DNA from: Schmidtea nova
Lineage: Eukaryota
DNA length: 64,000 bases
Assembly: GCA_044892505.1 (NCBI GenBank)
Contig: CM097884.1
Span: 62,001 to 126,000, forward strand
Reading direction: 5' to 3'
Shown one piece after another: positions 34,201 through 64,000 of this stretch. Both the position numbers and the translations under genes were made by a program. Under the pieces are notes generated by a model. That model was not told where the DNA came from. It ran no database searches and saw only the letters and a program-made list of their open reading frames with translations. Each line of letters begins with the position of its first letter. Within the stretch, counting starts at the first letter, position 1.

Positions 34201-34483
34201 TTTGTTAGTATAATTTATTATTGTTATTATAATTTTTGAAACACTTCAATGATAAACGTTATATGAAAGCACTACTCAAAATATTTTAAGAATATATCAC
34301 ATGGTGAAATACGATAAATATTAAACTAATTATTTATTATTATTATTATTAATATTACTATTATTTCTATGACGTAACCATAGTTTCTAAAAATTATTAC
34401 CCAAATTATAAAAACAGACTGAAACTAATCTGTACAATATATAACTAAATAATTAAAAAACAAAGTTTTTCAATAAATTTTAT

Positions 34484-37400
34484 TTAAACAAAACTTTCAT
34501 CTTGGATATCTCCAGGTGGATCTTGGAATTGTTGATCTGGATTGATTCTTGGATCGGTATGTTGAAATATAACCAAGTCACCTTCCATATAATGGCCATA
34601 TGCCAAGCTTTTATTTTTCGCCACCCATTTCCTTTTATCATCTGCGTTTGTTAGTGCAGTCTTTTCATGTTTAATAGTAAAAAGTTGGTGATTTTTACTT
34701 GTGATTCTCGTTTGGGGAACAGAAAATATTTGGTTATTATTAAAACAGTCCAGGTACGACTGATGCTTTATGTCAGTACCCGCTAATGTTGCCCCCTTAG
34801 CTTTATTAGTTTCCTTGTCACCTAAAAGACTATAACATTTAGGTCTAAGAAACACCCACTCCTCGTATTTAAGCCCTTTATTCTCATCTTTGAACTTGCC
34901 AATGACAGAATCAAGGTTCCTACTGTATAGTGGGTGATTCGGATCGTAATTAGAAGTGTCAAGTAAGTTATCTCTTATCATGGCCGGTAAAAGAATATCA
35001 AGCTTACAATTTCTAATCTCAAGAAAAAACGAATCGGTGTCACCAGCTACGATGTTAATTTCGCAGTTGAATTCGTTACGATATTTTTGTAACTCTTCAT
35101 ACTGCAGCTGGTACATTCTAAGTTTAGATAGATCCAGTACAGTTTGACCAATGTAGTTGGGTCTATCCAAACACACCGATTCCTGATTCAGCAAGACGGC
35201 AACCAAATCATCGTCAATTTCGAAAGTCCTTTTAAAAGTTGGCTTAGAAGTATATGTAATCAGCCTAGAAGCCGAATTACATAATCTTAAATTTATGCGC
35301 TTTTTAAGATTCTCTATGGTTTTACCGTAGAGACTATTATTTAATAATTTATAATAATTTTTACCCAGAGCATTACTTGATTCTGCTCTAAGTCTGGTAT
35401 TGGTATCGATGTAATCCTTAAAAATACATGCTTGTTTAAATTTAATTGCCCTATGGACATGAGTTATTTTTACTCCAAGAGAAAGAAAAAGTTTGAGAAG
35501 TCTCCAATGAAGAACATAGTTCTTCTTGGGATAATGCGTAAGCATCAACTTCTCAACCTTTGAGCCAGGTGGACACATCTTTTCAGCGGCAACTGGCAAA
35601 TCATCCAGCTTGTCGTGAATCGAATCAGGAATTTCTAAATCGACTTCTAATGTAAATCCAAATGTTAATACTTCTAAATCAGCAGATTCACAGTAATAAA
35701 TTATTTTATTTAATTTTTCCCTATCAGTTACCCATTTAAATTCTTTATAAGGTAGTTTTTGGCTTAAAGCCCACCCATATAAATTATTTATATCTATATA
35801 AAGAAGCTCAATGTCGTCGGAGGATACTACATGGTGTTTGTTAACAAATGTTAACCCACCACGGATCCCCCCTTCGAAAAAATTATACATCTCCATATCT
35901 TGAAACAACTCGATAGGAAATTTCAAAGTCATCAAAGCTGAATTCCATGACATGCCTGGAATTCCCAAGAAATTAAGAGGCTCAAGTCGGTTATGTGCAA
36001 TGGATTTTGCCCTAAATTGCTGAAAAAAGTCGGCAAGTAAGAAAACATCCAATTTCAGGTATAACATCATATAATCAAACAATGTTTCACAATTAAATTC
36101 ATCCCATATATGTTGAGCTTTTTCATACTCATCGATATTAACTCCTTCCCAAATCGGTGGCAACTCGTATGTATTTTGTAAAACCTCTAAAGAAGTTGCA
36201 AAATTATATGGGAATATGCCTTTGGATGTAATAATAGTCCCTATAAATTCGGATGAAGTAAGAGGAAAATCTGTTAAAGTCTTTACAGCATCGTTTAAGC
36301 TACAGCTTACAAATTGGCAAGAATCGATAAATTTAATAGTTAAACTATCGACTCTTGCATATAAGGTCAAAAACTTTTCACTGGTAGTAGGAATACAACT
36401 TATATCCCATTTATCGAATTTATTTAAACCATACTTGAGAATATGATGTAAATCATATCCGCGTAAATTATGAAATAGTACAGGCATAATGAATCTTATT
36501 TGCCGAGAAAAATTGCATTTAGAGCAAGCTGCACCCAAGTATTTACCTGTATAATGGTCATGATCTTTAACCGGATTTTTCAAAGGTTTATTACACAAAT
36601 AACAAATTATAGAACTACGAAATGATCTTATTTGTGCAGGAGAAAGATATTCCATTTTCTTTTTGGAATTATTTATAAAGTAAGGTAAAACTACTTTTTC
36701 TCCTATATCATTGATTTCAGTCAAAAACTCTTCTACACAGTTAAGACCATAAAAGCTTTTATACGATTTTTCGCCAGTAAAGTTATTAATAAGCAACAAG
36801 CCAGCAGAAATAGGTAAGTGGCGTTGAAAATACTTATCGTCCTTGGGTAAAACAGCCTCAAAATCGGCATATACAACGAAAGGAGGGGTAACAATTTTTG
36901 ACCAATCTTTAAATTCCAAGTTCTTATCTGAAGGCAAAGTGTACAAAGTTGTACCTAACTGATTTTTTGTGCATAAAGTCTGATGTTTCTCAAAAGCTTC
37001 AGTCAATCTAAAACCATTCAAGCAGCGCTCACACCAAATGCTCTGAACCCTAACATTGGTAACCAAAGAATTTCTACAATTCAAAAGCCTGTCAAGATTG
37101 GTAACTGCAATATAATGAAAAGAGTCACTTTCCTCTAACAAAATCAAATTAATTGGAGTGCCACCTACAACCTTTGACCTATGAATAATATCTACAAATG
37201 GATGTTTCATGACTTCCTCTTCCTCAGTAATATAATTTAGATCATACTCGTCATATGAAAGAATATTTATTGCCAACCAGGGGTTTTTCGCTTCAAATTT
37301 GGGTATATTACATAATTTCATAGGAAGATCAGAAGGATCAAACACAAGGTCTGAGGGATTATAATTATAAGACTTACTTCTATTAGATTTCACATCCTTG

Positions 37401-38185
37401 TATTTTAAAATTGCCAAAATACTATATATAAAACACAATTTATCTGTATTCTTTACATTGACAGTGCAATGTTTTGCCTTTAATGATGGTGGGGTTGAAC
37501 AAGAACCGTGACCACTCAATCTACTTATTTGCGAATATTTTGTAAGTTTAAAGCTTATTTCCTTAATTTTATTTATTGACCAATTGCTGCCATTTTCGCA
37601 GACTTTAGTCATTTTTTCACTTAATAGAGCAATACCTTCATCTAAAAAGGTATCACTCATTGGTTTTGCAGAATTTGATATTATAAAAGATTGAAATTGC
37701 TTATTCTTTTCAAATTCTACATCAATGCAAAATTGTACTTTTACATACCCCATTTTGGAAATAACTGAATTAAATTTATTTAATAAAGGTGAAGGAATAA
37801 TTAATTTATTTAAATTTAAAGAATCCACATCCATTTTAACAATGGCATGCGATTTTTTCAAATTATATTTAACCAAAGGTTCAACAGAACCGCCATATTG
37901 GACAACATGTAAATTAGGAATAACTAAAACATCGTCATTTGATGAATGGACATCTTCATCATCAGATATTACATTTATTTTAGTCGGTTTAGGACAAATA
38001 GTAACATTTCGTCGTTTACATTTATTAATTAATGCGAAAAGACTTTTCTTAGTGCATGTGAATTGATTTAAATGGAGATAATGTTGGAAATAAAAATCAA
38101 TGTAATTTATATGTTGGGAGCTCTTACATGTGGGACATAAATAGAAGGTGACTTGGTTATTTATAATATGATAGTATCGCTCCAT
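34484..38185 (-). CDS. Protein-primed family B DNA polymerase (Polinton pPolB), left-arm copy; probable upstream exons 38873-38822, 38778-38725, 38680-38576, main exon from 38241
   Basis: 1233-aa open ORF; Exo I YADFE, Exo II FHNLRGYD, endonuclease-VII-like insert CYLC...DHDHYTGKYLGAACSKCN, Pol motifs YIDINNLYG, KLLNNSLYGK, GDTDS, KAKG. Confidence 0.96.
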   Translation of the reverse strand: MERYYHIINNQVTFYLCPTCKSSQHINYIDFYFQHYLHLNQFTCTKKSLFALINKCKRRNVTICPKPTKINVISDDEDVHSSNDDVLVIPNLHVVQYGGSVEPLVKYNLKKSHAIVKMDVDSLNLNKLIIPSPLLNKFNSVISKMGYVKVQFCIDVEFEKNKQFQSFIISNSAKPMSDTFLDEGIALLSEKMTKVCENGSNWSINKIKEISFKLTKYSQISRLSGHGSCSTPPSLKAKHCTVNVKNTDKLCFIYSILAILKYKDVKSNRSKSYNYNPSDLVFDPSDLPMKLCNIPKFEAKNPWLAINILSYDEYDLNYITEEEEVMKHPFVDIIHRSKVVGGTPINLILLEESDSFHYIAVTNLDRLLNCRNSLVTNVRVQSIWCERCLNGFRLTEAFEKHQTLCTKNQLGTTLYTLPSDKNLEFKDWSKIVTPPFVVYADFEAVLPKDDKYFQRHLPISAGLLLINNFTGEKSYKSFYGLNCVEEFLTEINDIGEKVVLPYFINNSKKKMEYLSPAQIRSFRSSIICYLCNKPLKNPVKDHDHYTGKYLGAACSKCNFSRQIRFIMPVLFHNLRGYDLHHILKYGLNKFDKWDISCIPTTSEKFLTLYARVDSLTIKFIDSCQFVSCSLNDAVKTLTDFPLTSSEFIGTIITSKGIFPYNFATSLEVLQNTYELPPIWEGVNIDEYEKAQHIWDEFNCETLFDYMMLYLKLDVFLLADFFQQFRAKSIAHNRLEPLNFLGIPGMSWNSALMTLKFPIELFQDMEMYNFFEGGIRGGLTFVNKHHVVSSDDIELLYIDINNLYGWALSQKLPYKEFKWVTDREKLNKIIYYCESADLEVLTFGFTLEVDLEIPDSIHDKLDDLPVAAEKMCPPGSKVEKLMLTHYPKKNYVLHWRLLKLFLSLGVKITHVHRAIKFKQACIFKDYIDTNTRLRAESSNALGKNYYKLLNNSLYGKTIENLKKRINLRLCNSASRLITYTSKPTFKRTFEIDDDLVAVLLNQESVCLDRPNYIGQTVLDLSKLRMYQLQYEELQKYRNEFNCEINIVAGDTDSFFLEIRNCKLDILLPAMIRDNLLDTSNYDPNHPLYSRNLDSVIGKFKDENKGLKYEEWVFLRPKCYSLLGDKETNKAKGATLAGTDIKHQSYLDCFNNNQIFSVPQTRITSKNHQLFTIKHEKTALTNADDKRKWVAKNKSLAYGHYMEGDLVIFQHTDPRINPDQQFQDPPGDIQDESFV

Positions 38186-40749
38186 TAATTTGTGGCAATC
38201 GTTATGATTTGACGACTTACAATAATTCGCATAAAATTTACCTTAATATGAAATATCTTTAAATTTATCAAAAAATCATTAAAATAAATTAATAGAGATA
38301 TGAATTATTAGAAAATAAATATGAAATTTAAGATAAATATGATTTAAATATAATAATTACTAAAATAATTTAAATTTAATATAAAACTTATTACAAAATA
38401 ATATTAAAGGAATTTGTTTAAATTAAATGTTTACGTAAAGTAAAGATTATTTAAATTATTACAAAATATTACCAAAATTATATATTTACAAATATTTTAC
38501 TAAAGTTATTTACTAAATTGATTAAAATAATTATCGAAATATAATTAAAATTAATTAAAATTAATCAATACTTACATTGAACATTCAATACCACATCAGG
38601 TATAACTCCATTATTCACAATATTCTCGTTATTAACAATCTCAGCTTGTACGGTAGTTTGTTCAGTCATATTTGCATCCCCTAAAGTAAAAGTTAAATAA
38701 TTTATTAAGTTAATGATCAAGTACCATTTTCTTCTGTATTTTCTAACATCGATTTCCCAATTGCATTATTGATATTACCTAAATTAATACTAAATGATAA
38801 TAAATTAAAAAATAAATTTACCATTTTCTTTCCCACTTGGGTTTTCGTTCATAAAACTTGTTATCATGTTCATTTTTAATGTTTATTATTTGTTAAAGTG
38901 AATAATGAATGAAAAAGGTTTGTTTATATATCAAAGTTATTACACACACATAACCTTTGACCAATAAAAATCGAGTAAGGGGTAGGAAATTTATTCTTAT
39001 TAGCCAATCAGAATCGAGTAAGAGGCAGTAAAGGTATTATTATCATTAGATAGAGAATTATGACTAATTATATATTACGTTGCAGTATTTTAAAAAAACT
39101 AGAAAAGTTATTTCAACAAATTATAATACACATCAAAGTTATAAAATATTTCAATGAATTGCATGCATGTCATATGATTAAAATATATTAGACTAAATAT
39201 TTCAGTAAATTACGTCTAAATTATATTACAATTCAATAATTACGTCAGTTATAAAAAATATTTTAATTAATTTTGATAAAATACATTAGAATTGTCAATA
39301 ACACACACAAAACTTTTATAATTTTCATTAGTATAGAAATTAAATTATATCTACACATGATTACAATAAATATTCGATAAATCTATGCTAAATAGTCGAA
39401 AAAATCCAGTATTTTATTACAAAACACGTGTGTAACACGAAAAACGACAACTTTTAGATTTCGAATCAAGCCATTTTATAGAAATTTAAATTTTATCTAT
39501 ACTTTATTACAATGAAAACTCAATAAATTTATTTTATATACACGAAAAATGCAAAATTAATTACAAAACACGTGTGTATTACAAACACACTAGCAAACTA
39601 ATTTTCTAATCAAGCCATTTTATAGGAAATTAAATTTTACTTATACTTTATTACAATGAAAACTCAATAAATTTATTTTATATACACAAAAAATGCAAAA
39701 TTAATTACAAAACACGTGTGTATTACAAAATACGACAACTTTCAGATTTCTAATAAAGCCATTTTGTAGACATTTAAATTTTACACATATAATATTACAA
39801 GGAAAACTCAAAAAAGTTATTTTATATACATGAAAAATGTAAAATTAATTACAAAACACGTGTGCATTACAAACACACCAACAAACTAATTTTCTAATCA
39901 AGCCATTTTATAGGAAATTAAATTTTACCTATACTTTATTACAATGAAAACTCACTAAAGTTACTTTATATTGTTAAAAATTTGAAAATTCAAAATAAAA
40001 CACGTGTGCATCGCAAAATACGACAACCGTCAGAATTCCAATAAAGCCATTTTGTAGACATTTAAATTTTATACATATAATATTACAATGAAAACTCAAA
40101 AAAGTTATTTTATTTAGGTGAAATATAGAAATTTAATGACAAAACACGTGTGCACAACAATATACACAACATTTTGAATTTTTAATTCAGCCATTTTGTA
40201 GACAATAAAATTCTGTCTATCTATTGTTTCACTAAAAACTCGATCGGGCCGGTTTATCGACTCGAAAAAGGCGTTTGAAGGTTTGTAGTAGGAGGCTATG
40301 TCCGGTCTGCCGCCCCCCCCCATGTGTGAACTCAAATACTTTTTTATTAAATTTAAAATAAAATTTTATATTTAAAAAAATTAAAACAAAAAATTCATAT
40401 AATTAAATAAAATATTCTAGTTATTTAAAACAAAAATTTCACTTAATTTAAACAAAAATTCACTTAATTTTAAAAAAAAATTCACTCAATTTAAAAAATA
40501 TACGAAATTACGTAATTATATACAAAATTACATAATTATCGGGTTTTATTGAGCACACTTGATTACGCAATGATTACGTAACTATGTGTGCTACATAAAA
40601 CCCCGAGCGATTACGTAATATACACACATGGGGGGTAGTGGCGCAGACAGGACACATCCTCCTACTACAAACCTTCAAACGCCTTTTTCGAGTCGATAAA
40701 CCGGCCCGATCGAGTTTTTAGTGAAACAATAGATAGACAGAATTTTATT

Positions 40750-41540
40750 GTCTACAAAATGGCTGAATTAAAAATTCAAAATGTTGTGTATATTGTTGTG
40801 CACACGTGTTTTGTCATTAAATTTCTATATTTCACCTAAATAAAATAACTTTTTTGAGTTTTCATTGTAATATTATATGTATAAAATTTAAATGTCTACA
40901 AAATGGCTTTATTGGAATTCTGACGGTTGTCGTATTTTGCGATGCACACGTGTTTTATTTTGAATTTTCAAATTTTTAACAATATAAAGTAACTTTAGTG
41001 AGTTTTCATTGTAATAAAGTATAGGTAAAATTTAATTTCCTATAAAATGGCTTGATTAGAAAATTAGTTTGTTGGTGTGTTTGTAATGCACACGTGTTTT
41101 GTAATTAATTTTACATTTTTCATGTATATAAAATAACTTTTTTGAGTTTTCCTTGTAATATTATATGTGTAAAATTTAAATGTCTACAAAATGGCTTTAT
41201 TAGAAATCTGAAAGTTGTCGTATTTTGTAATACACACGTGTTTTGTAATTAATTTTGCATTTTTTGTGTATATAAAATAAATTTATTGAGTTTTCATTGT
41301 AATAAAGTATAAGTAAAATTTAATTTCCTATAAAATGGCTTGATTAGAAAATTAGTTTGCTAGTGTGTTTGTAATACACACGTGTTTTGTAATTAATTTT
41401 GCATTTTTCGTGTATATAAAATAAATTTATTGAGTTTTCATTGTAATAAAGTATAGATAAAATTTAAATTTCTATAAAATGGCTTGATTCGAAATCTAAA
41501 AGTTGTCGTTTTTCGTGTTACACACGTGTTTTGTAATAAA
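40750..41540 (+). repeat. Six-copy 144-bp tandem array (mirrored at ~39413-40203) with CACGTG and AAAATGGC in every unit
   Basis: CACGTG at 40803, 40947, 41091, 41235, 41379, 41523; AAAATGGC at 40756, 40900, 41044, 41188, 41332, 41476. Confidence 0.92.
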
Positions 41541-41930
41541 ATACTGGATTTTTTCGACTATTTAGCATAGATTTATCGAATATTTATTGTAATCATGTGT
41601 AGATATAATTTAATTTCTATACTAATGAAAATTATAAAAGTTTTGTGTGTGTTATTGACAATTCTAATGTATTTTATCAAAATTAATTAAAATATTTTTT
41701 ATAACTGACGTAATTATTGAATTGTAATATAATTTAGACGTAATTTACTGAAATATTTAGTCTAATATATTTTAATCATATGACATGCATGCAATTCATT
41801 GAAATATTTTATAACTTTGATGTGTATTATAATTTGTTGAAATAACTTTTCTAGTTTTTTTAAAATACTGCAACGTAATATATAATTAGTCATAATTCTC
41901 TATCTAATGATAATAATACCTTTACTGCCT

Positions 41931-42030
41931 CTTACTCGATTCTGATTGGCTAATAAGAATAAATTTCCTACCCCTTACTCGATTTTTATTGGTCAAAGGT
42001 TATGTGTGTGTAATAACTTTGATATATAAA
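41931..42030 (+). promoter_or_regulatory. Putative PolB promoter: two inverted CCAAT boxes plus TATA (mirrored in left arm)
   Basis: Duplicated CTTACTCGATT..ATTGG modules 43 bp apart (ATTGG at 41945 and 41988); TATATAAA at 42023, ~50 nt upstream of ATG 42080. Confidence 0.6.
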
Positions 42031-42767
42031 CAAACCTTTTTCATTCATTATTCACTTTAACAAATAATAAACATTAAAAATGAACATGATAACAAGTTTT
42101 ATGAACGAAAACCCAAGTGGGAAAGAAAATGGTAAATTTATTTTTTAATTTATTATCATTTAGTATTAATTTAGGTAATATCAATAATGCAATTGGGAAA
42201 TCGATGTTAGAAAATACAGAAGAAAATGGTACTTGATCATTAACTTAATAAATTATTTAACTTTTACTTTAGGGGATGCAAATATGACTGAACAAACTAC
42301 CGTACAAGCTGAGATTGTTAATAACGAGAATATTGTGAATAATGGAGTTATACCTGATGTGGTATTGAATGTTCAATGTAAGTATTGATTAATTTTAATT
42401 AATTTTAATTATATTTCGATAATTATTTTAATCAATTTAGTAAATAACTTTAGTAAAATATTTGTAAATATATAATTTTGGTAATATTTTGTAATAATTT
42501 AAATAATCTTTACTTTACGTAAACATTTAATTTAAACAAATTCCTTTAATATTATTTTGTAATAAGTTTTATATTAAATTTAAATTATTTTAGTAATTAT
42601 TATATTTAAATCATATTTATCTTAAATTTCATATTTATTTTCTAATAATTCATATCTCTATTAATTTATTTTAATGATTTTTTGATAAATTTAAAGATAT
42701 TTCATATTAAGGTAAATTTTATGCGAATTATTGTAAGTCGTCAAATCATAACGATTGCCACAAATTA

Positions 42768-45700
42768 ATGGAGCGATACTATCATATTATAAATAACCAA
42801 GTCACCTTCTATTTATGTCCCACATGTAAGAGCTCCCAACATATAAATTACATTGATTTTTATTTCCAACATTATCTCCATTTAAATCAATTCACATGCA
42901 CTAAGAAAAGTCTTTTCGCATTAATTAATAAATGTAAACGACGAAATGTTACTATTTGTCCTAAACCGACTAAAATAAATGTAATATCTGATGATGAAGA
43001 TGTCCATTCATCAAATGACGATGTTTTAGTTATTCCTAATTTACATGTTGTCCAATATGGCGGTTCTGTTGAACCTTTGGTTAAATATAATTTGAAAAAA
43101 TCGCATGCCATTGTTAAAATGGATGTGGATTCTTTAAATTTAAATAAATTAATTATTCCTTCACCTTTATTAAATAAATTTAATTCAGTTATTTCCAAAA
43201 TGGGGTATGTAAAAGTACAATTTTGCATTGATGTAGAATTTGAAAAGAATAAGCAATTTCAATCTTTTATAATATCAAATTCTGCAAAACCAATGAGTGA
43301 TACCTTTTTAGATGAAGGTATTGCTCTATTAAGTGAAAAAATGACTAAAGTCTGCGAAAATGGCAGCAATTGGTCAATAAATAAAATTAAGGAAATAAGC
43401 TTTAAACTTACAAAATATTCGCAAATAAGTAGATTGAGTGGTCACGGTTCTTGTTCAACCCCACCATCATTAAAGGCAAAACATTGCACTGTCAATGTAA
43501 AGAATACAGATAAATTGTGTTTTATATATAGTATTTTGGCAATTTTAAAATACAAGGATGTGAAATCTAATAGAAGTAAGTCTTATAATTATAATCCCTC
43601 AGACCTTGTGTTTGATCCTTCTGATCTTCCTATGAAATTATGTAATATACCCAAATTTGAAGCGAAAAACCCCTGGTTGGCAATAAATATTCTTTCATAT
43701 GACGAGTATGATCTAAATTATATTACTGAGGAAGAGGAAGTCATGAAACATCCATTTGTAGATATTATTCATAGGTCAAAGGTTGTAGGTGGCACTCCAA
43801 TTAATTTGATTTTGTTAGAGGAAAGTGACTCTTTTCATTATATTGCAGTTACCAATCTTGACAGGCTTTTGAATTGTAGAAATTCTTTGGTTACCAATGT
43901 TAGGGTTCAGAGCATTTGGTGTGAGCGTTGCTTGAATGATTTTAGATTGACTGAAGCTTTTGAGAAACATCAGACTTTATGCACAAAAAATCAGTTAGGT
44001 ACAACTTTGTACACTTTGCCTTCAGATAAGAACTTGGAATTTAAAGATTGGTCAAAAATTGTTACCCCTCCTTTCGTTGTATATGCCGATTTTGAGGCTG
44101 TTTTACCCAAGGACGATAAGTATTTTCAACGCCACTTACCTATTTCTGCTGGCTTGTTGCTTATTAATAACTTTACTGGCGAAAAATCGTATAAAAGCTT
44201 TTATGGTCTTAACTGTGTAGAAGAGTTTTTGACTGAAATCAATGATATAGGAGAAAAAGTAGTTTTACCTTACTTTATAAATAATTCCAAAAAGAAAATG
44301 GAATATCTTTCTCCTGCACAAATAAGATCATTTCGTAGTTCTATAATTTGTTATTTGTGTAATAAACCTTTGAAAAATCCGGTTAAAGATCATGACCATT
44401 ATACAGGTAAATACTTGGGTGCAGCTTGCTCTAAATGCAATTTTTCTCGGCAAATAAGATTCATTATGCCTGTACTATTTCATAATTTACGCGGATATGA
44501 TTTACATCATATTCTCAAGTATGGTTTAAATAAATTCGATAAATGGGATATAAGTTGTATTCCTACTACCAGTGAAAAGTTTTTGACCTTATATGCAAGA
44601 GTCGATAGTTTAACTATTAAATTTATCGATTCTTGCCAATTTGTAAGCTGTAGCTTAAACGATGCTGTAAAGACTTTAACAGATTTTCCTCTTACTTCAT
44701 CCGAATTTATAGGGACTATTATTACATCCAAAGGCATATTCCCATATAATTTTGCAACTTCTTTAGAGGTTTTACAAAATACATACGAGTTGCCACCGAT
44801 TTGGGAAGGAGTTAATATCGATGAGTATGAAAAAGCTCAACATATATGGGATGAATTTAATTGTGAAACATTGTTTGATTATATGATGTTATACCTGAAA
44901 TTGGATGTTTTCTTACTTGCCGACTTTTTTCAGCAATTTAGGGCAAAATCCATTGCACATAACCGACTTGAGCCTCTTAATTTCTTGGGAATTCCAGGCA
45001 TGTCATGGAATTCAGCTTTGATGACTTTGAAATTTCCTATCGAGTTGTTTCAAGATATGGAGATGTATAATTTTTTCGAAGGGGGGATCCGTGGTGGGTT
45101 AACATTTGTTAACAAACACCATGTAGTATCCTCCGACGACATTGAGCTTCTTTATATAGATATAAATAATTTATATGGGTGGGCTTTAAGCCAAAAACTA
45201 CCTTATAAAGAATTTAAATGGGTAACTGATAGGGAAAAATTAAATAAAATAATTTATTACTGTGAATCTGCTGATTTAGAAGTATTAACATTTGGATTTA
45301 CATTAGAAGTCGATTTAGAAATTCCTGATTCGATTCACGACAAGCTGGATGATTTGCCAGTTGCCGCTGAAAAGATGTGTCCACCTGGCTCAAAGGTTGA
45401 GAAGTTGATGCTTACGCATTATCCCAAGAAGAACTATGTTCTTCATTGGAGACTTCTCAAACTTTTTCTTTCTCTTGGAGTAAAAATAACTCATGTCCAT
45501 AGGGCAATTAAATTTAAACAAGCATGTATTTTTAAGGATTACATCGATACCAATACCAGACTTAGAGCAGAATCAAGTAATGCTCTGGGTAAAAATTATT
45601 ATAAATTATTAAATAATAGTCTCTACGGTAAAACCATAGAGAATCTTAAAAAGCGCATAAATTTAAGATTATGTAATTCGGCTTCTAGGCTGATTACATA

Positions 45701-55455: not shown

Positions 55456-55938
55456 TTAAACAAAATTAAATAATAAATCGAGATATTTTTCATCAATTAA
55501 ATCATTATTGATTAATGAATTAATATAATTTTTAATTTCATTTACTTGATTAAAATAATCCAATGTTTTAATTCCTAATATTACAACTTTTCCACTTGAA
55601 AAAATATTAATACAAATCGGGTTATAATTTATTAATCTTAAAGCTGGAAATATTTCGGGTTCGTACCAGCACTCTGTTTTATTTTGCAATTCATATAAAT
55701 TTATGGATTTACCCATATCCAATGTTATAGTGATCGATTGAATTTTTAAATCTGAAATTTTATATTTCAAATCATCTGGTTTTAACGGTTGCTTACAACC
55801 CATTACACGGCATTTTCCCGATCTGAAAAATAAAATAGGATACTTTCCGCTCCTATCTATAACTTGCTGGGGTTTCCCAACAGGAAATAACATGTTTGGA
55901 ACTAAACACTTGCCCATATAATTAATATTACTTATCAT
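55456..55938 (-). CDS. TATA-box-binding protein (TBP)-like protein, ~160 aa
   Basis: Two TBP repeats: ISNINY...ILFFRSGKCRVMGCK and KIQSITITLDM...INLYEL...WYEPEIFPALRL...INIFSSGKVVILGIK (canonical YEPELFPGL...LIFVSGKVVLTGAK); first ATG at 55938. Confidence 0.85.
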   Translation of the reverse strand: MISNINYMGKCLVPNMLFPVGKPQQVIDRSGKYPILFFRSGKCRVMGCKQPLKPDDLKYKISDLKIQSITITLDMGKSINLYELQNKTECWYEPEIFPALRLINYNPICINIFSSGKVVILGIKTLDYFNQVNEIKNYINSLINNDLIDEKYLDLLFNFV

Positions 55939-55997
55939 TTTTATAAATTGAATAAATATAAACAATATTAAATTAATTAATAATTAATTAAATAAAA

Positions 55998-56621
55998 ATG
56001 GAATTAAGAAATGATGCAGTTTATCAAATAGTGGGCCCAAGTGGTAGTGGAAAAACATTATTTGTATGTAAATTGTTGCAATCAAAAATGTTTAAATCTA
56101 AATTCAATAAAATTTACTGGCATCGGGGAGCTGATGAAGAACATGGACTGACTCAAGATCAATTCTGTAAATTAAAAATGACAATTATAAAAGGGTTTGA
56201 TAAAAACTGGTCATCTAGACTACGACAAGGCGATGTTATAATTATCGATGATTTGTACCAAGAAGCAAATAAAGAAAAAGATTTTAATAATTTATTCACA
56301 AAAATTAGTAGACATTTAGGAGTTACTGTAATTTTCATTACTCAAAATTTATTTCATCAAGGTGGTAGTCACAGAACTCGTAATTTAAATGTTCAATATT
56401 TGGTTATATTCAAAAACCCAAGAGATGCTACAATTATTGATTTTCTAGCAAGACAAGCTTACCCTAATGATAGGAAATTCTTAATTAATTCATTTCAAGA
56501 TGCTACTAAAGTTCCTCATGGATATTTATTCTTTGATTTTACTCAACAATGTCCTGATGATTTACGTATCCGAACGGATATATTTAACGAAAAAGGAGTC
56601 ACGGTTTATAAACAAAATTGA
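55998..56621 (+). CDS. Polinton genome-packaging ATPase (A32/FtsK-like)
   Basis: Walker A GPSGSGKT, Walker B IIIDD, SRH, FITQNLF, R..NLN..YLVIFKNPRD; open 207-aa ORF. Confidence 0.93.
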   Translation: MELRNDAVYQIVGPSGSGKTLFVCKLLQSKMFKSKFNKIYWHRGADEEHGLTQDQFCKLKMTIIKGFDKNWSSRLRQGDVIIIDDLYQEANKEKDFNNLFTKISRHLGVTVIFITQNLFHQGGSHRTRNLNVQYLVIFKNPRDATIIDFLARQAYPNDRKFLINSFQDATKVPHGYLFFDFTQQCPDDLRIRTDIFNEKGVTVYKQN

Positions 56622-56642
56622 AAACAAATAAATGAAATAATA

Positions 56643-56828
56643 ATGTCATTTAAAAAAGTAATTGTCAAGTTAAATAAAGAAGCTGTTCAAAAAGCTGATC
56701 AAAAACTACTTTAAAAAGTTGATCAAAAACTTCTTAAAAAAGTTGATCAAAAATCTAAATTAGTTAAAAAAGTTGTCAAAAAGATTGGTAAAAGAAAGAA
56801 ACAAGTAAAGAAGTGGATAAAATTATAA
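56643..56828 (+). pseudogene. Lys-rich small basic protein with KKVDQKLL repeats, one premature stop
   Basis: MSFKKVIVKLNKEAVQKADQKLL*KVDQKLLKKVDQKSKLVKKVVKKIGKRKKQVKKWIKL; TAA at 56712 where the sister repeat has AAA. Confidence 0.55.
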
Positions 56829-56858
56829 ACGAAATAAATATACACAAAAATTTTAATC

Positions 56859-57188
56859 ATGAAATTTGAACGTAGTTTACCGTATTTTAATGCTTTGGTT
56901 AAAGCTCCAACAAATAAGCGAATGATAATTTTACAAGCTTTCCCACCCTTTGTTATTGATGATTTACTTGAAGTCGTTTTTAATATTGTTCATGGTAATG
57001 TAAATATTAGTAGATCAAAGAAAATTGAACTACAAAAACATAAAAATTCGCTTTTATCATTAGTGAATACCAAAAATAGAAATCTTATGCGAAAAATAAT
57101 ATATAAACAAAAGGGTGGGTTTCTCGGTACATTAATTCCAATAGTATTATCATCAATAAGCGCAATCTCATCTTTAAGAAATGGGTAA
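56859..57188 (+). CDS. Polinton small virion-type protein with QKGGF motif and hydrophobic C-terminal helix
   Basis: Open 109-aa ORF inside the structural cassette; ...L.EVVFNIVHGNV...QKGGFLGTLIPIV. Confidence 0.65.
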   Translation: MKFERSLPYFNALVKAPTNKRMIILQAFPPFVIDDLLEVVFNIVHGNVNISRSKKIELQKHKNSLLSLVNTKNRNLMRKIIYKQKGGFLGTLIPIVLSSISAISSLRNG

Positions 57189-57250
57189 TAAAATGTCTGA
57201 ACCGAATAAACATAATATAGATTTAAATATTTTAACAAATTGTTGTATTA

Positions 57251-58334
57251 ATGAAGAAAATCATGAAGAATATAAAAACGATATGGACAAACCCAAAAGA
57301 TCCCGATGGTTTTGGTTCAGTCAAAAAATTGGCAAAAAGAATAAAAAGTTCAAAGAATGAAACTCAGAAATGGTTATCTGATCAATTGGCATATAGTTTA
57401 AATAAACCAATGTTGAAAAGATTTCCTACACGCAAATATAAAACTTTTGGGGGTAACGATTTATGGCAAATGGATTTAATGGAAATGATTCCTTATTCTA
57501 AAATTAACAAGGGTTACAAATATATTTTGACTTGTATTGATGTTTTTAGCCGTTATGCACGAGCTATTCCAACAAAAACTAAATCTGCTAATGAAATGGC
57601 TGAGGCTATTGAATCTTTATTTAAAGATGGGAAGCCACATAATTTACAAACTGATTTGGGTAAGAAATTAAATTTTTAAAAATTAATTAATTTATTTTAG
57701 GAAAAGAGTTTTATAACAGCAAAGTAAAAGAAGTGATCAAAGGAATCAATCATTATTCTGTATTTTCTCAATTCAAAGCTGCTCATGTTGAAAGATTTAA
57801 TCGAACTTTAAGAGATCGTTTGAAAAAGTTTTTTGTGTATCAAGGTAACAAAACATGGATAAATGTTTTACCGAAATTATTTCCAGTTACAATCGTTCAC
57901 CGCATTCGGGATTAAATAAAATGAAACCTATCGATGTATATTCAAATAATAATTTTGATGGATGGATAAAAGATAGATTAAAATCAATTAATAAAAAACC
58001 GAAATATAAATTAGGCGATTATGTGAGAATGAGTAAAATCAGTGCTTCTCCCTTCATCAAAAATTTTGATAGTAATTGGAGTGATGAAGTATATCAAATC
58101 TCAAATGTTGATACTAATCAAAATCCTGTCATGTATACTATTTCCGATCATGAAAACAATGTAATCGAGGGTAAATTCTACGAACAAGAACTTCAAGTTA
58201 TTCCAGCTCCCACAGTTTTTAGAATTCAAAAGATTTTAAAAACCAAAACTGATGGGAAATATAAACAATATTACGTTAAATGGCATGGCTATGAAACTCC
58301 AAGTTGGATATCTGAAAAACAATTGATTAAATAA
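57251..58334 (+). CDS. Retroviral-type (RVE) integrase with C-terminal chromodomain; one intron (57660-57700) and a 1-nt frameshift near 57875
   Basis: WQMDL, YILTCIDVFSRYA, LQTDLG|KEFYN after splicing, VERFNRTL, KYKLGDYVRMS, YYVKWHGY. Confidence 0.9.
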
Positions 58335-58339
58335 ATATT

Positions 58340-59377
58340 ATGAAAGAAAACCAGTTTTATATGATTTTGCCTAGCAATGCATGTCCTCTTATTTATCCTA
58401 ATAATGAAGCTAGTAATTTTAATGTAGAATTTCAAAATCCGATTTATTTAAATAGTAATGACGATTGGGAAGTTGCTTTGATTGATTTTACTTTTGTGTA
58501 TAATTTGTTTCCGTATTATAGTAATTCTTTTATTCAAATTGAAACTAAAAGAGAAATTCAAGAAATTAGTTATTTGAGAATTAATAATCAAAATAAAACA
58601 ATTCAAGTTATAGTTTCTCAACCTAGTTCAGACACTGATGTATTTATTGAAAAATATAATTATTTAGTGATTGTTTGCCCACATGTTCCATTTAAAATTA
58701 CATTTCCAGATATTGAACATGCAAAAAGTTTTGGATTGGAAAATATATCAATTACAAGTGAAAATGATCATTGTCGTTTAAAATTACCAAAATTTACGAA
58801 TGATAATAGTCTTGAACAATTTGGAATTTTAATAAATTATGACATTAAAACTGTTAATGATTATTATTTTCAAGATGAATTATTCATAACGTCATTACCG
58901 GAATTGCAAGGATATTTAATGAAAATTAATCCATCTCCATTTAAAGAAATGAAACTTGTCAATAATGAATTGGTTAAAATTATTCTTCAGGATAATATTT
59001 CAAAAATTACTTTTGATTCAAATTTAACCAAATCTCTGGGTCTACAGAAACAAACATATACTGATACAGAAATAATTGGTGTAAAAATCCCCAAAATTTT
59101 ACAACTTCATCAGCAAATGTTCATTTACAGCAACATTATTGAACCAGTGACTGTTGGAGATGTACGAGTTCCCCTCCTTAAATCAATTTGGATCAAGAAA
59201 TATGACCAAGGCGAAGTTGTACAAATTGAAATAAAGAATCCAATGTATTTGCCGATTTCAACATCAACTATAAACAACATTGAAATCAATATTCGTGATG
59301 ACAGTGGAAAATTAATTAAATTTTCAAAAGATACAAAGACTCATTTGACTCTACATTTTCGTAAAATAAATGATTAA
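58340..59377 (+). CDS. Minor capsid protein (penton-like), copy 1
   Basis: FYMILPSN...N....F.V....PIYL...WEVAL N-terminus; FIYSNIIEPV.VGD..VPLL, NPMYLP, IEINIRDDSGK, LTLHFRK C-terminus. Confidence 0.82.
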   Translation: MKENQFYMILPSNACPLIYPNNEASNFNVEFQNPIYLNSNDDWEVALIDFTFVYNLFPYYSNSFIQIETKREIQEISYLRINNQNKTIQVIVSQPSSDTDVFIEKYNYLVIVCPHVPFKITFPDIEHAKSFGLENISITSENDHCRLKLPKFTNDNSLEQFGILINYDIKTVNDYYFQDELFITSLPELQGYLMKINPSPFKEMKLVNNELVKIILQDNISKITFDSNLTKSLGLQKQTYTDTEIIGVKIPKILQLHQQMFIYSNIIEPVTVGDVRVPLLKSIWIKKYDQGEVVQIEIKNPMYLPISTSTINNIEINIRDDSGKLIKFSKDTKTHLTLHFRKIND

Positions 59378-60392
59378 AAAAGATTTTTATGTTAATTTAC
59401 CAAGCAATTCTTGTCCATTGACACATCCCAATAATAAAGCTGGAAAATTCAATGTTGAATATCAAAACCCTATTTATTTGGGTGGTAGTTGGGAAGTTGC
59501 TCTTATGGATTTTACTTTTGTGTACAATGAATTTCCATTTTATAATAGTTCAAGTATAAAATTTATTAGAAATGAATTACATTCTAGTTATGAATATTTC
59601 AATTTTAACCAACAAAAGAAAGAATATGATATAAGTCACGATTCTAATTATTATTTAATGTATATTGATGGCAATATTTTAAATGTAAATTGTAAATATT
59701 TTCCATTTCAAATAATATTTGATAGTGTTGATGAAGCTAAAAAATTAGGGTTTCAAGAAAAAGCTGTGACATTTAATGATGAATTAAACAAAATTAAAAT
59801 TCCAGCAAATGAAAATAAAAAACTTGATGATACTATACGATTTACTATAACTTATACTTTTCCTGTTGAATACACAGATAATTTCAAAGACGATTTAATA
59901 ATAAATAATCTTACTGAATTATCTGATCAAATTGTAACTTTTTATCCACATCCATTTAAAGTGATTGATATTAAAGAAGGAAAATTAATTAAATTAATTC
60001 TTGAAGATGATATGACTAGTGTAAAATTTAGTATGAATTTAGCAAATTCGTTAGGATTAGTTGAACAAGAATTCTTTGACAAAATTATTGATGGCGTATA
60101 TTATCCACAAGTTTTAAAACTTCATCAACAAATGTTCATCTATACGAATATTATTCAACCAATTCTTGTTGGTGACATGTCAGTTCCCCTATTGAAATGT
60201 GTTTGGGTTGAAAAACATAAAAAGGGTGATTTGGTTCAAATTGTTGAGAAAAATCCAATGTATTTACCGGTCAGTTCCACATATATAAACAATATTGAAA
60301 TCAATATTCGTGATGACAGTGGAAAAATAGTTAAATTTGCAAAAGAAGACAAAACTTACTTGACATTACATTTCCGTAAAATAAATGAATAA
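59370..60392 (+). CDS. Minor capsid protein (penton-like), copy 2
   Basis: Same N- and C-terminal motifs as copy 1, divergent middle. Confidence 0.82.
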   Translation: MIKKDFYVNLPSNSCPLTHPNNKAGKFNVEYQNPIYLGGSWEVALMDFTFVYNEFPFYNSSSIKFIRNELHSSYEYFNFNQQKKEYDISHDSNYYLMYIDGNILNVNCKYFPFQIIFDSVDEAKKLGFQEKAVTFNDELNKIKIPANENKKLDDTIRFTITYTFPVEYTDNFKDDLIINNLTELSDQIVTFYPHPFKVIDIKEGKLIKLILEDDMTSVKFSMNLANSLGLVEQEFFDKIIDGVYYPQVLKLHQQMFIYTNIIQPILVGDMSVPLLKCVWVEKHKKGDLVQIVEKNPMYLPVSSTYINNIEINIRDDSGKIVKFAKEDKTYLTLHFRKINE

Positions 60393-60792
60393 TCCAGATA
60401 TTATCAGTTTCTATAGCAACAGCCAATCAGGTGGAGAATTACCGTATTTTGTAGGTAAGCAATATGGAACTGGTTGGTTGAAAACGATAGGTAGATTTGC
60501 ATTACCAATTCTTAGACGTATTGGAAATTTTGGTATGAAAACTGCCAATGATGTGTTAAATAATAATTCAAAGATTTTACCTGCACTAAAATCAAATGTC
60601 ATTTCTGAAATTAAAGATTCATTGCCCGATGTGATTCATCATTTGCCACAAGTAATTAGTAAAGTGACTGATGTGTTTAACGAAAATAAAACTGAAAATA
60701 AACAAAATGGCGGAATTCTTAAACGAAAAAGAAATATGAAGAAACATATAAACAAAAGAATGAAAGGATATGGAACAATATTTGAAAAATGA
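60385..60792 (+). CDS. Polinton core/maturation-type protein with QxGG motifs and an amphipathic helix
   Basis: QSGG, QYGTGWLKTIGRFALPILRRIG, QNGG, basic C-terminus; lies between the penton and MCP genes. Confidence 0.7.
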   Translation: MNNPDIISFYSNSQSGGELPYFVGKQYGTGWLKTIGRFALPILRRIGNFGMKTANDVLNNNSKILPALKSNVISEIKDSLPDVIHHLPQVISKVTDVFNENKTENKQNGGILKRKRNMKKHINKRMKGYGTIFEK

Positions 60793-62015
60793 TCAGTGCA
60801 AAATCTGAATTATGTCTTTTTGATAGACCATCTCCACAAGCAGTAATTGAACATGGTGCATTTGAAGATATTTACCCAACAAATTCAATTACAGATGCTG
60901 GGACATCATCTATTCAATTTTACATCAATGGATCTCAAACTGAATATTTAGATTTGAACGATACTTTACTATTTCTTCAGGTCAAAGTTGTAAACAAATC
61001 GGGTGAAAATTTAGGATTGGATGCTGATGTTACTCCCAACAATTTCTTTTTCCAAACTCTTTTTAAAGAAGCCGAATTAATTTTCAATTCTACTAAAGTT
61101 GAAGGAGGAAATGATACATTTACACACAAAGCCATGATTGAAACTATTCTCAACTACAATAGTGATACAAAACACACATATTTAACTCCAATGGGATACA
61201 ATGACCATGATCTTACTAGAAAAGCATGGATTGCAAAATCAAAACCATTTTCAATTTGTTCTCCATTACATTTCGATTTCATGGAACAACCCAAGTATTT
61301 ATTACCAGGTGTTAGTGTTCAAATTAAATTGACGAGATCAAATCCATCCAATAGTTTAACATGTACAAAAATTGAACCTATAATTGAATTATTAGAGGCA
61401 AAATTAATGGTTAGAAGAGTTCGAGTAGAACCATCAGTTTATGCTGGGCATCAAATTGGACTTGGTACAAGAAATGCAATTTATCCAATAAGAAATAAGG
61501 AAGTTGTAGAATTTTCATTGCCAATGGGTTCTTCTTCATTTTATAAGGAACAAATCTTTGGAGATAGACGATTACCAAACTTTATTCTTGTAGCATTTCA
61601 AGGAAATAAAAGACATAGTGGTTCTTTTACTGAAACTTATTCTATTTACGATCATTTTAATGTCAAATCATTAACTTTATCAAAAGGAAGTGATTATCGT
61701 GAAAAATATTCTCAAGATTTTGAAAATGATATTTGTAGTACTAGTTATATGCAATCTATTGTCCGTAACCTTGGTTACCTGAATAAGAGTATGAATTGCG
61801 GTATTACTTTAGCAGATTGGAAAAGTAAATATCCTTTTTTCACCTTCGTTTTGGCTCCAGATTTTGACCTAAATCAAAGTCAATTACCACAACAAGGTAA
61901 TCTAAGACTTGATATTAAATTTGGTACACCATTGACTGAATCAGTTTCTGTAATTGTATATGGAGTTTTTGAAAAGGAATTACAAATTACAGCTAATCGA
62001 ACAATACTGGTTTGA
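60789..62015 (+). CDS. Major capsid protein (double jelly-roll type)
   Basis: KSELCLF..P..Q..IE.G...IYP, IQFYI.G...EYLDL..T.L, LLPGV...IKLTR, G.L.L.IKF..PL...V.VIVYG.F...L.I; open 408-aa ORF. Confidence 0.88.
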   Translation: MISAKSELCLFDRPSPQAVIEHGAFEDIYPTNSITDAGTSSIQFYINGSQTEYLDLNDTLLFLQVKVVNKSGENLGLDADVTPNNFFFQTLFKEAELIFNSTKVEGGNDTFTHKAMIETILNYNSDTKHTYLTPMGYNDHDLTRKAWIAKSKPFSICSPLHFDFMEQPKYLLPGVSVQIKLTRSNPSNSLTCTKIEPIIELLEAKLMVRRVRVEPSVYAGHQIGLGTRNAIYPIRNKEVVEFSLPMGSSSFYKEQIFGDRRLPNFILVAFQGNKRHSGSFTETYSIYDHFNVKSLTLSKGSDYREKYSQDFENDICSTSYMQSIVRNLGYLNKSMNCGITLADWKSKYPFFTFVLAPDFDLNQSQLPQQGNLRLDIKFGTPLTESVSVIVYGVFEKELQITANRTILV

Positions 62016-62104
62016 GCAGAGCTCAAACAATACTCGTTTAATATAAACTAATTTTAATTAATTAATAAAGTAAATGAAGTAAGATTTATTAATTAAAAAA
62101 GTAA

Positions 62105-62483
62105 ATGAAGTAAGATTAATTTTAAATAATTAAATTTTATTGATTTTAGTTCAATTCAGGTAGATCAGATTGCTAGAAAATTGATTGGATCGGAATTTCT
62201 AGGAGTTTTTCCTCTAGATAAAATACCGTATATAGATGTGAATAAAGCATTGATTGTCAATACTCAATCATCAAATCTCAAAGGTGAACATTGGCTTGCA
62301 ATTTATAATAAACCCGATAAAATATACGTGTTTGATCCAATGGGATTTTATTATCCACCGATATTATTGAAAAAATTATCGTCAATGTTAAAACCAATAG
62401 AATATAACAGAATTCGATATCAAAATCCAATGACAAAAACCTGTGGGCAACATTGTTTAGCTTGGCTAAAATATATGAAATAA
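62105..62483 (+). CDS. Adenain-like cysteine protease, two exons (62105-62109, 62150-62483)
   Basis: ATGAA|GTAAG...TTTTAG|T gives MNSIQVDQI; catalytic residues GEHW, FDPMG, QNPMTKTCGQHC are intact. Confidence 0.9.
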
Positions 62484-62569
62484 AACTTTTTATTATAAAA
62501 CGACTTTTATTATAAAACGACTTTTTCTATTTATGGTATTCACTAATACAAAAGTGAATTTTTATGTTT

Positions 62570-62800
62570 GAATTTGTTAATTTAAAATTGCATATTGTAA
62601 AATATTTAATTAATTTTAAATTACATATTGTAAAAATATTTAATTAATTTTAATATTGTAAAAATATTTAATTAATTTTAAATTACATATTGTAAAATAT
62701 TTAATTAATTTTAAATTACATATTGTAAAAATATTTAATTAATTTTAAATTACATATTGTAAAAATATTTAATTAATTTTAAATTACATTAATTTAAAAA
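62570..62800. repeat. ~33-34-bp AT-rich tandem repeat
   Basis: AATTTTAAATTACATATTGTAAAA(A)TATTTAATT, about six copies. Confidence 0.85.
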
Positions 62801-62905
62801 TAATTTTGTTTAAATAAACGACATTTTTACGAACAAGCCAACTTAAGTAAGTAAGTTTAATTTTTTATGAATATTTTTTAATTTATTTTTACAGATCTTT
62901 AAATA

Positions 62906-63091
62906 ATGACAACAAAGAAAATTTTACCAAACAATATTATGTCAAAGAAAATTAAATCAAGCAATATTATGTCAAAGAAAATTAAATCAAGCAATATTAT
63001 GTCAATGAAAATTAAATCAAGCAATGTTATGCCAATGAAAATTAAATCAAGCAATATTATGTCAAAGAAAATTAAACCATCGATACTTAAA
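62906..63091 (+). CDS. Basic repeat protein exon with 10-aa SNIMSKKIKS units
   Basis: Five 30-nt units in frame; GTAAGT donor near 63092; downstream exon not identified. Confidence 0.5.
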
Positions 63092-63149
63092 TGTAAGTAT
63101 TTATATATTGATTAAATATATTATTATCAATTAAATGTTTATTTTTTAT

Positions 63150-63355
63150 ATGAATTTAATTAATTTAATTGATAGATTTTTATATGAATTTAATTAATTG
63201 ATAGATTTTTATATGAATTTAATTAATAATTGATAGATTTTTATATAGATTTAATTAATAATTGATAGATTTTTATATGAATTTAATTAATAATCGATAG
63301 ATTTTTATATGAATTTAATTAATAATTGATAGATTTTTATATAGATTTAATTAAT
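63150..63355. repeat. ~30-33-bp AT-rich tandem repeat
   Basis: AATTGATAGATTTTTATAT(G/A)AATTTAATTAAT, about six copies. Confidence 0.85.
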
Positions 63356-63454
63356 TTTTATAATAAATATATTTTATAAATGATATATTTATATATTATT
63401 TTAAAATATATTTAATGTAAATAAGAAAAAATAAAGAACAAATTAAACAAGAGT

Positions 63455-63983
63455 TTATTCATGAAAATCATTAATTTTCCAAATAGGTTTTATCACGTTT
63501 TCAGTTTGTTTAAATCCTTGTAAGATAATTTGAATTTGATACATTGAATTATCATCTAATTTGCCTAAATCTGTTTCTTTTTTGCAGTTCATATATGTGA
63601 ATTCCTCGTTGAATTGAATATCTTTATTTATTAGCATTAAAATTTCTGATAGATTCTTTCTATCAGTTTCCCCGATTTTTCCAACCTGAATATTGAATTG
63701 ACATTGTTTCAATGTAACAGGTTCCTGTAAATAATATTAATTAGATTTTAATAATTTTTAATAAATTACTTTAAATGAATATTTGATTGGATATTTCAAA
63801 TACTCCATCGAGTATTGCATGAATTGAACTGGTGAATTCAATGCCAAATTAGATGAAGAAATAGGATTTTCCTCAAGAATAATCTTCATTATTTCTTGTT
63901 TTGTCATTCTTTTCGATTCTAGAAAAAATAAATTTAAAAATAATCATTTAAAATTAATTAATCTTACTTTTCAGTTGATACAT
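63455..63983 (-). CDS. Three-exon Polinton gene of unknown function (63983-63968, 63918-63770, 63724-63455), ~144 aa
   Basis: ATGTATCAACTGAAAA|GTAAG, TCTAG|AA, AAA|GTAAT, ACAG|GAA; splicing the 49- and 45-nt introns gives one open frame. Confidence 0.65.
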
Positions 63984-64000
63984 TTTTTAATAATTATTTT

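Follow-up and report, generated by a model that had tools for sequence, protein, structure and literature searches.

The 64,000-nt stretch of Schmidtea nova DNA analyzed here (the window) harbors a Polinton of 15,140 bp that encodes a trimmed TATA-binding protein (TBP) homolog. Our comparisons suggest that this protein likely binds a TATAAAC(A) box of the element, recruits host TFIIB and RNA polymerase II (Pol II), and switches on the late genes.

A Polinton family with its own TBP gene

The element extends from position 53973 of the window to position 5112 of locus L031. Polintons, or Mavericks, are 15–20 kb long, have terminal inverted repeats starting with AG, and generate a 6-bp target duplication. 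The element has this size, its inverted repeats start with AGTAG, CCTGTT is duplicated on both flanks, and a second copy has the 6-bp target duplication ATTATC. The Polinton genes for pPolB, rve integrase, A32-like ATPase, and cysteine protease are all present. A cysteine-rich frame and the TBP gene are read leftward. The ATPase, a short basic ORF, a pX-like gene, the integrase, two putative minor capsid genes, a 135-aa gene, a putative major capsid gene, the protease, and pPolB follow each other rightward:

53973–54910, left terminal inverted repeat, starting AGTAG, partly N in the window
55035–55376, minus strand, cysteine-rich stop-to-stop frame downstream of the TBP gene, coordinates transferred from copy L042, no Pfam match
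55456–55938, minus strand, TBP-like gene, 160 aa, ATG at 55938
55957–55963, plus strand, TATAAAC box within the 59-bp spacer, 41 nt before the ATPase ATG
55998–56621, plus strand, A32-like packaging ATPase, whose C-terminal YKQ codons contain the box 56607–56613
56643–56714, plus strand, short lysine-rich (basic) ORF, 36 nt after the box at 56607, closing after 23 codons here
56824–56830, plus strand, TATAAAC box, 35 nt before the pX-like gene
56859–57188, plus strand, pX-like gene, adenovirus pX-like motif at E 1e-4, below the cut-off, contains the box 57102–57108
57251–58334, plus strand, rve integrase with chromodomain, AATAAAC at −46, contains the box 58260–58266
58340–59377, plus strand, putative minor capsid protein 1, by size and position, no Pfam match, contains the box 59269–59275
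59370–60392, plus strand, putative minor capsid protein 2, with 45% identity to protein 1, contains the box 60284–60290
60385–60792, plus strand, 135-aa conserved cassette gene, contains the box 60747–60753, 42 nt before the putative major capsid gene
60789–62015, plus strand, putative major capsid protein, 408 aa, by size, position, and one weak match
62042–62048, plus strand, TATAAAC box after the putative major capsid gene, 32 nt before an ATG
62193–62468, plus strand, adenain-type cysteine protease, Peptidase_C5 at E 1.3e-5, over the cut-off
in L031, pPolB, DNA_pol_B_2 at E 6e-11
L031:5112, right end of the Polinton, beyond the window

Polintons have double jelly-roll major and single jelly-roll minor capsid proteins; for the putative major capsid protein, a double jelly roll-like Pfam match was obtained in only one of seven relatives (E 0.039), and no PDB match. 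The short lysine-rich ORF spans 41–61 codons in 12 of 13 other copies. The window copy is partly decayed: pPolB contains internal stops, and the integrase frame closes 70 codons after a 41-nt GT-AG intron candidate (57660–57700). Another very short intron candidate lies in the protease gene (around 62080–62150), and both genes are single-frame in metagenome relatives. The ATG located 32 nt after the box 62042–62048 probably opens the protease gene through this candidate intron. Sister families carry exonuclease-like and SSB-like genes that are missing from the window's family, in which the TBP gene is nevertheless kept. Its putative minor capsid gene (58340–60392) is duplicated, each copy with its own box, and is single in sister families. 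A small ORF starting with MG at 57181 overlaps the integrase start in another frame, has its own box 79 nt upstream, and is conserved in relatives (L084:3410–3658 and L095:640–879); the MG start presumably makes myristoylation possible. In some TBP-bearing elements, the second gene downstream of TBP encodes a leucine-rich-repeat protein whose N-terminus is hydrophobic (L074:1918–3327, L077, L080, L083, and L085).

Other features were recorded around the element. Approximately 1 kb past its right end, a second, decayed Polinton of another family (L031:6150–10000) encodes its own TBP (54% identical), head-to-head with an ATPase gene and with the same boxes. Two arms of 6,325 nt (34004–40328 and 40625–46949), 100% complementary and 296 nt apart, each contain the pPolB of another Polinton family (approximately 70% DNA identity to that of the window element) and 144-nt tandem repeats. 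Elsewhere in the genome, there are further divergent pPolB pairs with a spacing of approximately 10 kb, and also TBP copies that face each other (L020/L021); such arms could be either fold-back replication products or an assembly effect. The region 52293–53280 contains 120-nt repeats and frames whose translation we take to resemble antisense large-subunit rRNA. The Rfam search of positions 46000–64000 returned nothing at the gathering score. By eye, myosin exons with a MyTH4-like tail were recognized on the minus strand (2000–21500, 12600–14200, and 28400–30900), interrupted by remnants of hAT-like and other transposases.

The 160-aa protein had been predicted to adopt a two-repeat TBP fold, and all comparisons agree. 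The Pfam TBP profile (PF00352) matches residues 64–130, in the C-lobe only, with 61.4 bits for a cut-off of 22.9 (E 7.4e-17), and the PDB sequence matches of the ORF are TBPs in 35 cases out of 35. With an AlphaFold2 model based on 22 aligned relatives (pLDDT 91.2, pTM 0.79), Foldseek ranked TBP chains first (E 8e-9). VIA-align superposed this model on human TBP with a Z of 12.8 and an rmsd of 2.6 over 144 residues (1–144), both lobes included, which provides the fold comparison proposed with the original prediction. The model forms the two-lobe pseudo-symmetric saddle; of the ten-strand sheet, strand S2 of the N-lobe is not formed. Repeat 1 is shortened, as noted initially, and in a specific way: DSSP assigns no helix to residues 1–80 of the model, so that H1 and H2 of the N-lobe are absent, and deletions are also visible in the alignment. 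In this model, the Polinton TBP lacks the canonical set of four helices (H1, H2, H1', and H2'); a longer family member, P0101, possesses both N-lobe helices and shares the concave-face pattern (112 rows). This long form is Polinton-borne in at least one case, because at locus L100 it directly precedes a Polinton ATPase, a pX-like gene, and an integrase.

Residues were mapped by alignment to canonical TBPs, with yeast numbers taken from the tables of PMC12529657 and PMC2265533 and transferred by motif. Three of the four intercalating phenylalanines are retained, as expected from the motifs FFRSGK, EIFPA, and IFSSGK, which are all present. F38, F97, and F113 correspond to yeast F116, F190, and F207 and are found in 66, 68, and 68 of the 68 short-form rows, respectively. 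The fourth phenylalanine (F99) had been aligned to a lysine, an assignment that has to be corrected. In the MAFFT and hhalign alignments, it corresponds to Pro23, which is essentially invariant (65/68), and the preceding R98 to Lys22; a third alignment places Pro23 on the stirrup proline and deletes K-R-F, and none of the three places a lysine in the Phe column. The predicted replacement of one conserved asparagine by serine stands: within the central pair, N69 is kept as N4 and the C-lobe N159 has become Ser68 (68/68). The protein thus displays three Phe and one Asn, instead of the four and two of canonical TBPs. The DNA-facing residues replaced in the window copy are P23, N6, R44, M46, S68, R101, C109, and N111. 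Among the 68 short-form rows, V71 is changed to N in 65, V122 to R (R44) in 66, T124 to M (M46) in 68, I194 to R (R101) in 64, V203 to C in 67, and L205 to N (N111) in 68. The C-lobe stirrup glutamates E93 (yeast E186) and E95 (E188) are conserved in 67 and 66 rows. According to the available text of PMC7221094, two C-lobe glutamates of TBP contact TFIIB, and helix H2 of the N-lobe binds TFIIA, TAF1, Mot1, and Brf1.

The genome contains at least 150 intact TBP copies, full-length, stop-free, and 99–100% identical (best 150 of 18,913 candidates), and further Polinton families whose TBPs show 53–65% identity. A survey of Polintons for orthologs, as initially suggested, identified the gene in all those Polinton families of the genome that were examined, and at 55 metagenome loci. 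Of these, 21 encode another Polinton core gene (tblastn), and the remainder are mostly short contigs. A profile search of 1.84 billion representatives yielded 57 proteins at E 1e-30, and an Atlas search with the homolog P0007 retrieved TBP clusters only. Six scans of viral contigs recovered no relatives of the short TBP, the long TBP, the ATPase, or the putative major capsid protein. A PF03175 search of the genome for a TBP-less Polinton clade led back to members of this same clade: they have the box and, where the flank extended far enough, TBP. The distance of 59 bp between the TBP and ATPase ATGs (55938 and 55998) was correctly given in the original prediction, and its emphasis on a head-to-head organization holds for this genome, where 64 of the 66 loci examined show it at 58–119 bp and two have no ATPase in the flank. 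It does not extend to metagenome relatives. Among the 14 loci with both genes, TBP is co-oriented upstream of the ATPase in 11, downstream of the cassette in one, and divergent at a distance of 0.4–1.7 kb in two.

Polinton TBP genes are under purifying selection. Estimates of dN/dS, proposed earlier as a check, are well below 1: they range from 0.07 to 0.26 in 23 of 28 family pairs, the other five being saturated, and have a median of 0.20 (0.10–0.42) in 34 metagenome pairs chosen for a dS of 0.1–1.5 and an identity above 60%. Between families, ATPase values are 0.01–0.10. Polinton TBPs are 25–30% identical to cellular TBPs. In a 36-row TBP tree, built without TRF2 or identified giant-virus rows, the 19 members of the family fall together (100/100) on a stem of 1.83 substitutions, and among them the ten short forms make up a subclade (95/83). 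The five rows from the host sit with the eukaryotic TBPs (89/82), outside the Polinton clade, and a quick 141-row tree agrees. The nesting within host TBPs that had been named as contrary evidence is thus not seen. The host itself encodes at least four divergent TBP paralogs (L107, L108, L110, and L112), one of them highly derived, besides the canonical TBP (L106). A neutral and recent capture of a host TBP gene would account for the homology to TBP and for nothing further. We consider it refuted with near certainty because of the low dN/dS, the separate long-stemmed clade with host paralogs among eukaryotic TBPs, and the presence of TBP in all genome families examined and at 55 metagenome loci. 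The Polinton TBP is a family gene and not a one-off capture.

The TATAAAC box of the cassette genes

Between positions 55957 and 62048, TATAAAC occurs nine times on the sense strand, each time before a gene start, and once in antisense; window-wide, it is at the chance level (28 occurrences for 25.7 expected). The motif was first spotted by eye and then counted, post hoc, on largely the same loci. The sample comprised the window, the 55 metagenome loci, and eight genome stretches, de-duplicated per gene for seven cassette genes, and the counts are not independent events because the elements are related. Sense-strand ATAAAC lies 16–115 nt before 58 of 62 de-duplicated cassette starts (6.5 after shuffling and 2 in antisense), and the full TATAAAC precedes 46 of them (1.9 after shuffling). 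The hexamer was found before 12/12 ATPase, 8/8 pX-like, 8/9 integrase, 8/9 minor capsid, 7/7 135-aa, 8/8 major capsid, and 7/9 exonuclease-like genes. When aligned, the 58 boxes give T(43)-ATAAAC-A(51)/G(7), and their distance to the ATG varies from approximately 30 to 105 nt. All genome families examined share TATAAAC, which precedes the ATPase gene in 64 of 64 head-to-head loci, and the box is common to metagenome elements of 27–40% GC with different gene orders. In one lineage, L100, CATAAAC is found at three genes out of three together with a long-form TBP in which the P191 equivalent is unchanged.

Many boxes fall within the terminal coding part of the preceding gene, and there the box is kept at the DNA level. 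In the last 120 nt of coding sequence, the hexamer occupies 52 of 82 amino-acid-compatible sites in 15 elements (23.2 expected from codon usage), against 24 of 120 compatible sites elsewhere (25.8 expected). This in-coding hexamer typically corresponds to the rare codon pair ATA AAC.

The TBP genes are preceded by TATAAAC in one case out of 37 (1.0 after shuffling), by ATAAAC in five (2.1 expected), and by the canonical TATAWAWR in 18, about half of them (4.5 expected from shuffling). By eye, a CCAAT-like word often lies upstream of this TATA, and an initiator-like word of the TCA type downstream. No canonical TATA occurs in the 120 bases before the TBP gene of the window itself. Among 30 host histone-fold loci, 14 were dropped (ten with no in-frame ATG, two duplicates, and two of wrong length); ATAAAC precedes none of the 16 others and TATAWAWR six. 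Host H2A/H2B genes share a AATACCGCAACGTA-like motif 40–100 nt before the ATG (L212, L213, L215, L217, L218, L232, and L233).

TATAAAC is also present upstream of pPolB and at scattered sites of the elements. These sites could be expected if the Polinton TBP were an architectural DNA-bending factor acting in replication, integration, or packaging, and the boxes binding sites without a promoter role. We judge this hypothesis very improbable, as the boxes are strand-specific, precede gene starts, and number one per gene, and as the TFIIB-contact glutamates are invariant.

A candidate early-to-late switch

TATAAAC departs from TATAWAWR at base 7. TBP kinks its box between bases 1–2 and 7–8 (PMC10005294), and its C-lobe touches base 2 with I194, V203, and L205 (PMC1636458). 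The N-lobe should therefore lie on the downstream half of the box. TBP structures are in line with this orientation. We read the Polinton TBP as the cognate factor because the base-7 change would face the N-lobe, where a Phe has been lost and Arg, Met, and Asn gained. TBPm3 selects against C at positions 5–7 (PMC1636458), and TBP binds the C(−25) TATA variant through a Hoogsteen pair (1qn3 title; PMC8643651).

The best reading of these sequence data is a one-protein early-to-late switch. The TBP gene would be an early gene, read by host TBP via a canonical TATA. The Polinton TBP would then bind DNA at the TATAAAC box, dock host TFIIB through E93 and E95, and recruit Pol II. The loss of the N-lobe helices may free it from control by TFIIA, TAF1, Mot1, and Brf1. 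As a late class, the genes for packaging, integrase, protease, and the putative capsid proteins would be turned on, a timing predicted from this scheme. These data support the earlier proposal that the element encodes a basal factor whose specificity has been altered toward late genes. The arguments in its favor are the non-canonical box before each cassette gene, purifying selection, a clade apart from host TBPs, the conserved TFIIB-contact glutamates, and intron candidates pointing to Pol II. Those in the integrase and probably at the protease start indicate nuclear Pol II. Pol III was considered and set aside because of these intron candidates and because the N-lobe surface used by Brf1 is missing. 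A Pfam TFIIB search of the genome gave 25 candidates and six matches, none high-copy, and identified no element TFIIB, although an unassigned ORF might encode a very divergent one; TBP queries in the same genome gave 12,000–19,000 candidates. The host has more than one TFIIB-like locus (L200 and L201), with the TFIIB repeat split over exons. One may speculate that binding at the ATPase box also shuts off the TBP gene, whose ATG on the opposite strand is 19 nt away in this genome.

Some observations weigh against DNA binding by the Polinton TBP. Changes of Val122 to Arg and of Phe99 abolish DNA binding by yeast TBP (PMC2265533 Table 1), and the Polinton TBP may for this reason not bind DNA. Furthermore, base 2 of the box has remained the canonical A, yet the residues that contact it, I194, V203, and L205, are replaced. 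The variable distance between box and ATG and the missing canonical TATA before the window's TBP gene also count against the switch, and the searches recovered no TBP-less Polinton in which a dependence of the box on TBP would be visible. In an alternative scenario, the box would be a deliberately weak TATA for host TBP, productive only after amplification of the element DNA, and the Polinton TBP would be a decoy soaking up host TFIIB or dampening host or early transcription. Substitutions equal to DNA-binding-null yeast mutations are indeed fixed in the family next to an invariant TFIIB stirrup, and a canonical TBP has been crystallized on the C(−25) variant. We nevertheless hold this scenario to be unlikely: three Phe, N4, and the new set of concave-face residues are invariant across very divergent elements, which would be needless for a non-binder, and a TATA can be weakened in many ways, yet the elements hold on to one hexamer, even where this takes a rare codon pair.

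A second possibility is that a host factor, such as a divergent TBP paralog or an AT-binding activator, reads the box, or that the Polinton TBP does so only together with an element or host partner replacing the lost helices. The host encodes four divergent TBP-like loci besides canonical TBP that could read the box, small unassigned genes adjoin TBP in many relatives, and herpesvirus TBP mimics require five further viral proteins (PMC12529657). Against this possibility, the same box is found in metagenome elements of diverse GC content and gene order, and before 0 of 16 host histone genes, and only one unassigned gene lies beside TBP in the window's family. We rate this possibility as quite unlikely, and retain direct recognition of the box by the Polinton TBP as the probable mechanism.

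Relation to other TBPs and late-gene systems

The Polinton protein shares with the cellular TBP family the two-lobe saddle, three of four Phe, the N-lobe Asn, the C-lobe stirrup glutamates, and, mostly, the P191 equivalent. It differs by the absence of N-lobe H1 and H2, the replacement of one Phe by Pro, a concave face with family-invariant residues that are polar or larger, its own clade, and its carriage by a mobile element.

A viral TBP with its own late box is a known kind of system, and the architecture found here is unlike the herpesvirus and giant-virus versions. KSHV ORF24, EBV BcRF1, and HCMV UL87 are viral proteins with the TBP fold whose DNA face is more polar, and they act at TATT late promoters with host Pol II (PMC12529657). 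The Polinton TBP is similar in its fold, its polar DNA face, and the one-base TATA variant before putative structural genes. The layout is herpesvirus-like as well, with a TATA variant before structural genes and a canonical TATA before early ones, these classes being defined by gene type and not by timing. In contrast, ORF24 is 752 aa long, has four Phe and no TFIIB glutamates, and binds Pol II directly with a requirement for five more viral proteins (PMC12529657), whereas the Polinton TBP has 160 aa, three Phe, and conserved glutamates. Moreover, the herpesvirus box is changed at base 4 (TATT) and the Polinton box at base 7. Foldseek gave a weak structural match to BcRF1 (E 0.02), and matches at E 7e-8 and weaker, with 11–20% identity, to NCLDV and mirusvirus TBP-like proteins. 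The latter are also divergent viral versions of the fold and, in the accessible text of PMC7221094, have lost the N-lobe regulatory signature. According to the same text, these viruses nearly always encode their own TFIIB and have the first stirrup glutamate in approximately 40% of cases, compared with 67 of 68 short-form rows for E93.

Other mobile elements of this size carry late-transcription genes. VLTF3, reported in part of the literature from some polintoviruses and Polinton-like viruses, is likewise a late-transcription factor gene on a Polinton-sized element. It has a different fold and is tied to giant-virus transcription, unlike the window Polinton, which would rely on host nuclear Pol II and its own core-promoter box. 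Virophage late promoters, in the accounts available to us, are borrowed from giant viruses, whereas the box described here is the element's own.

One earlier annotation bears on novelty, which the original prediction had made conditional on orthologs not being already annotated. A "TBP" label appears in the Fig. 5 legend, in the non-animal section on MELD viruses and related elements, of Starrett et al. (2021, PMC8502044). That legend alone indicates that at least one element combines an adintovirus-like PolB with a TBP-like gene. The extracted text of PMC8502044 has no TBP label for the animal adintovirus maps, though the annotated maps themselves may name one, and proposes no promoter or function for the "TBP" gene. 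The main texts of PMC11131425, PMC12220804, and bioRxiv 2026.06.19.733378 contain no TBP, and the available text of PMC7221094 does not mention Polintons. A search of the openly accessible literature found no published description of the TATAAAC box or of a TBP-box pairing. The gene had thus been labeled once, and no description of the system was found in these sources.

More broadly, we lean, somewhat above an even chance, toward a widespread clade of animal Polintons with an autonomous early-to-late program. It would depend on a single TBP of 150–160 aa with a DNA face rebuilt for TATAAAC, of which only the TFIIB dock is kept and the N-lobe regulatory surface is shed. Among natural orthogonal TBP-promoter pairs, this one would be the smallest, and its evolution would have been independent of herpesviruses. 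It may also be viewed as a natural TBP experiment, in which the specificity for the downstream half is changed, the N-lobe helices are dispensable, and the TFIIB site is kept, a mirror image of the herpesvirus solution. In the literature available to us, the timing of capsid gene expression and the production of virions by Polintons are open questions, and no virions have been observed. A cognate factor-box pair would offer a direct handle on both, the box marking late genes and the TBP transcript marking cells with active elements. If this interpretation is correct, these "transposons" would have a regulated virion-producing phase.
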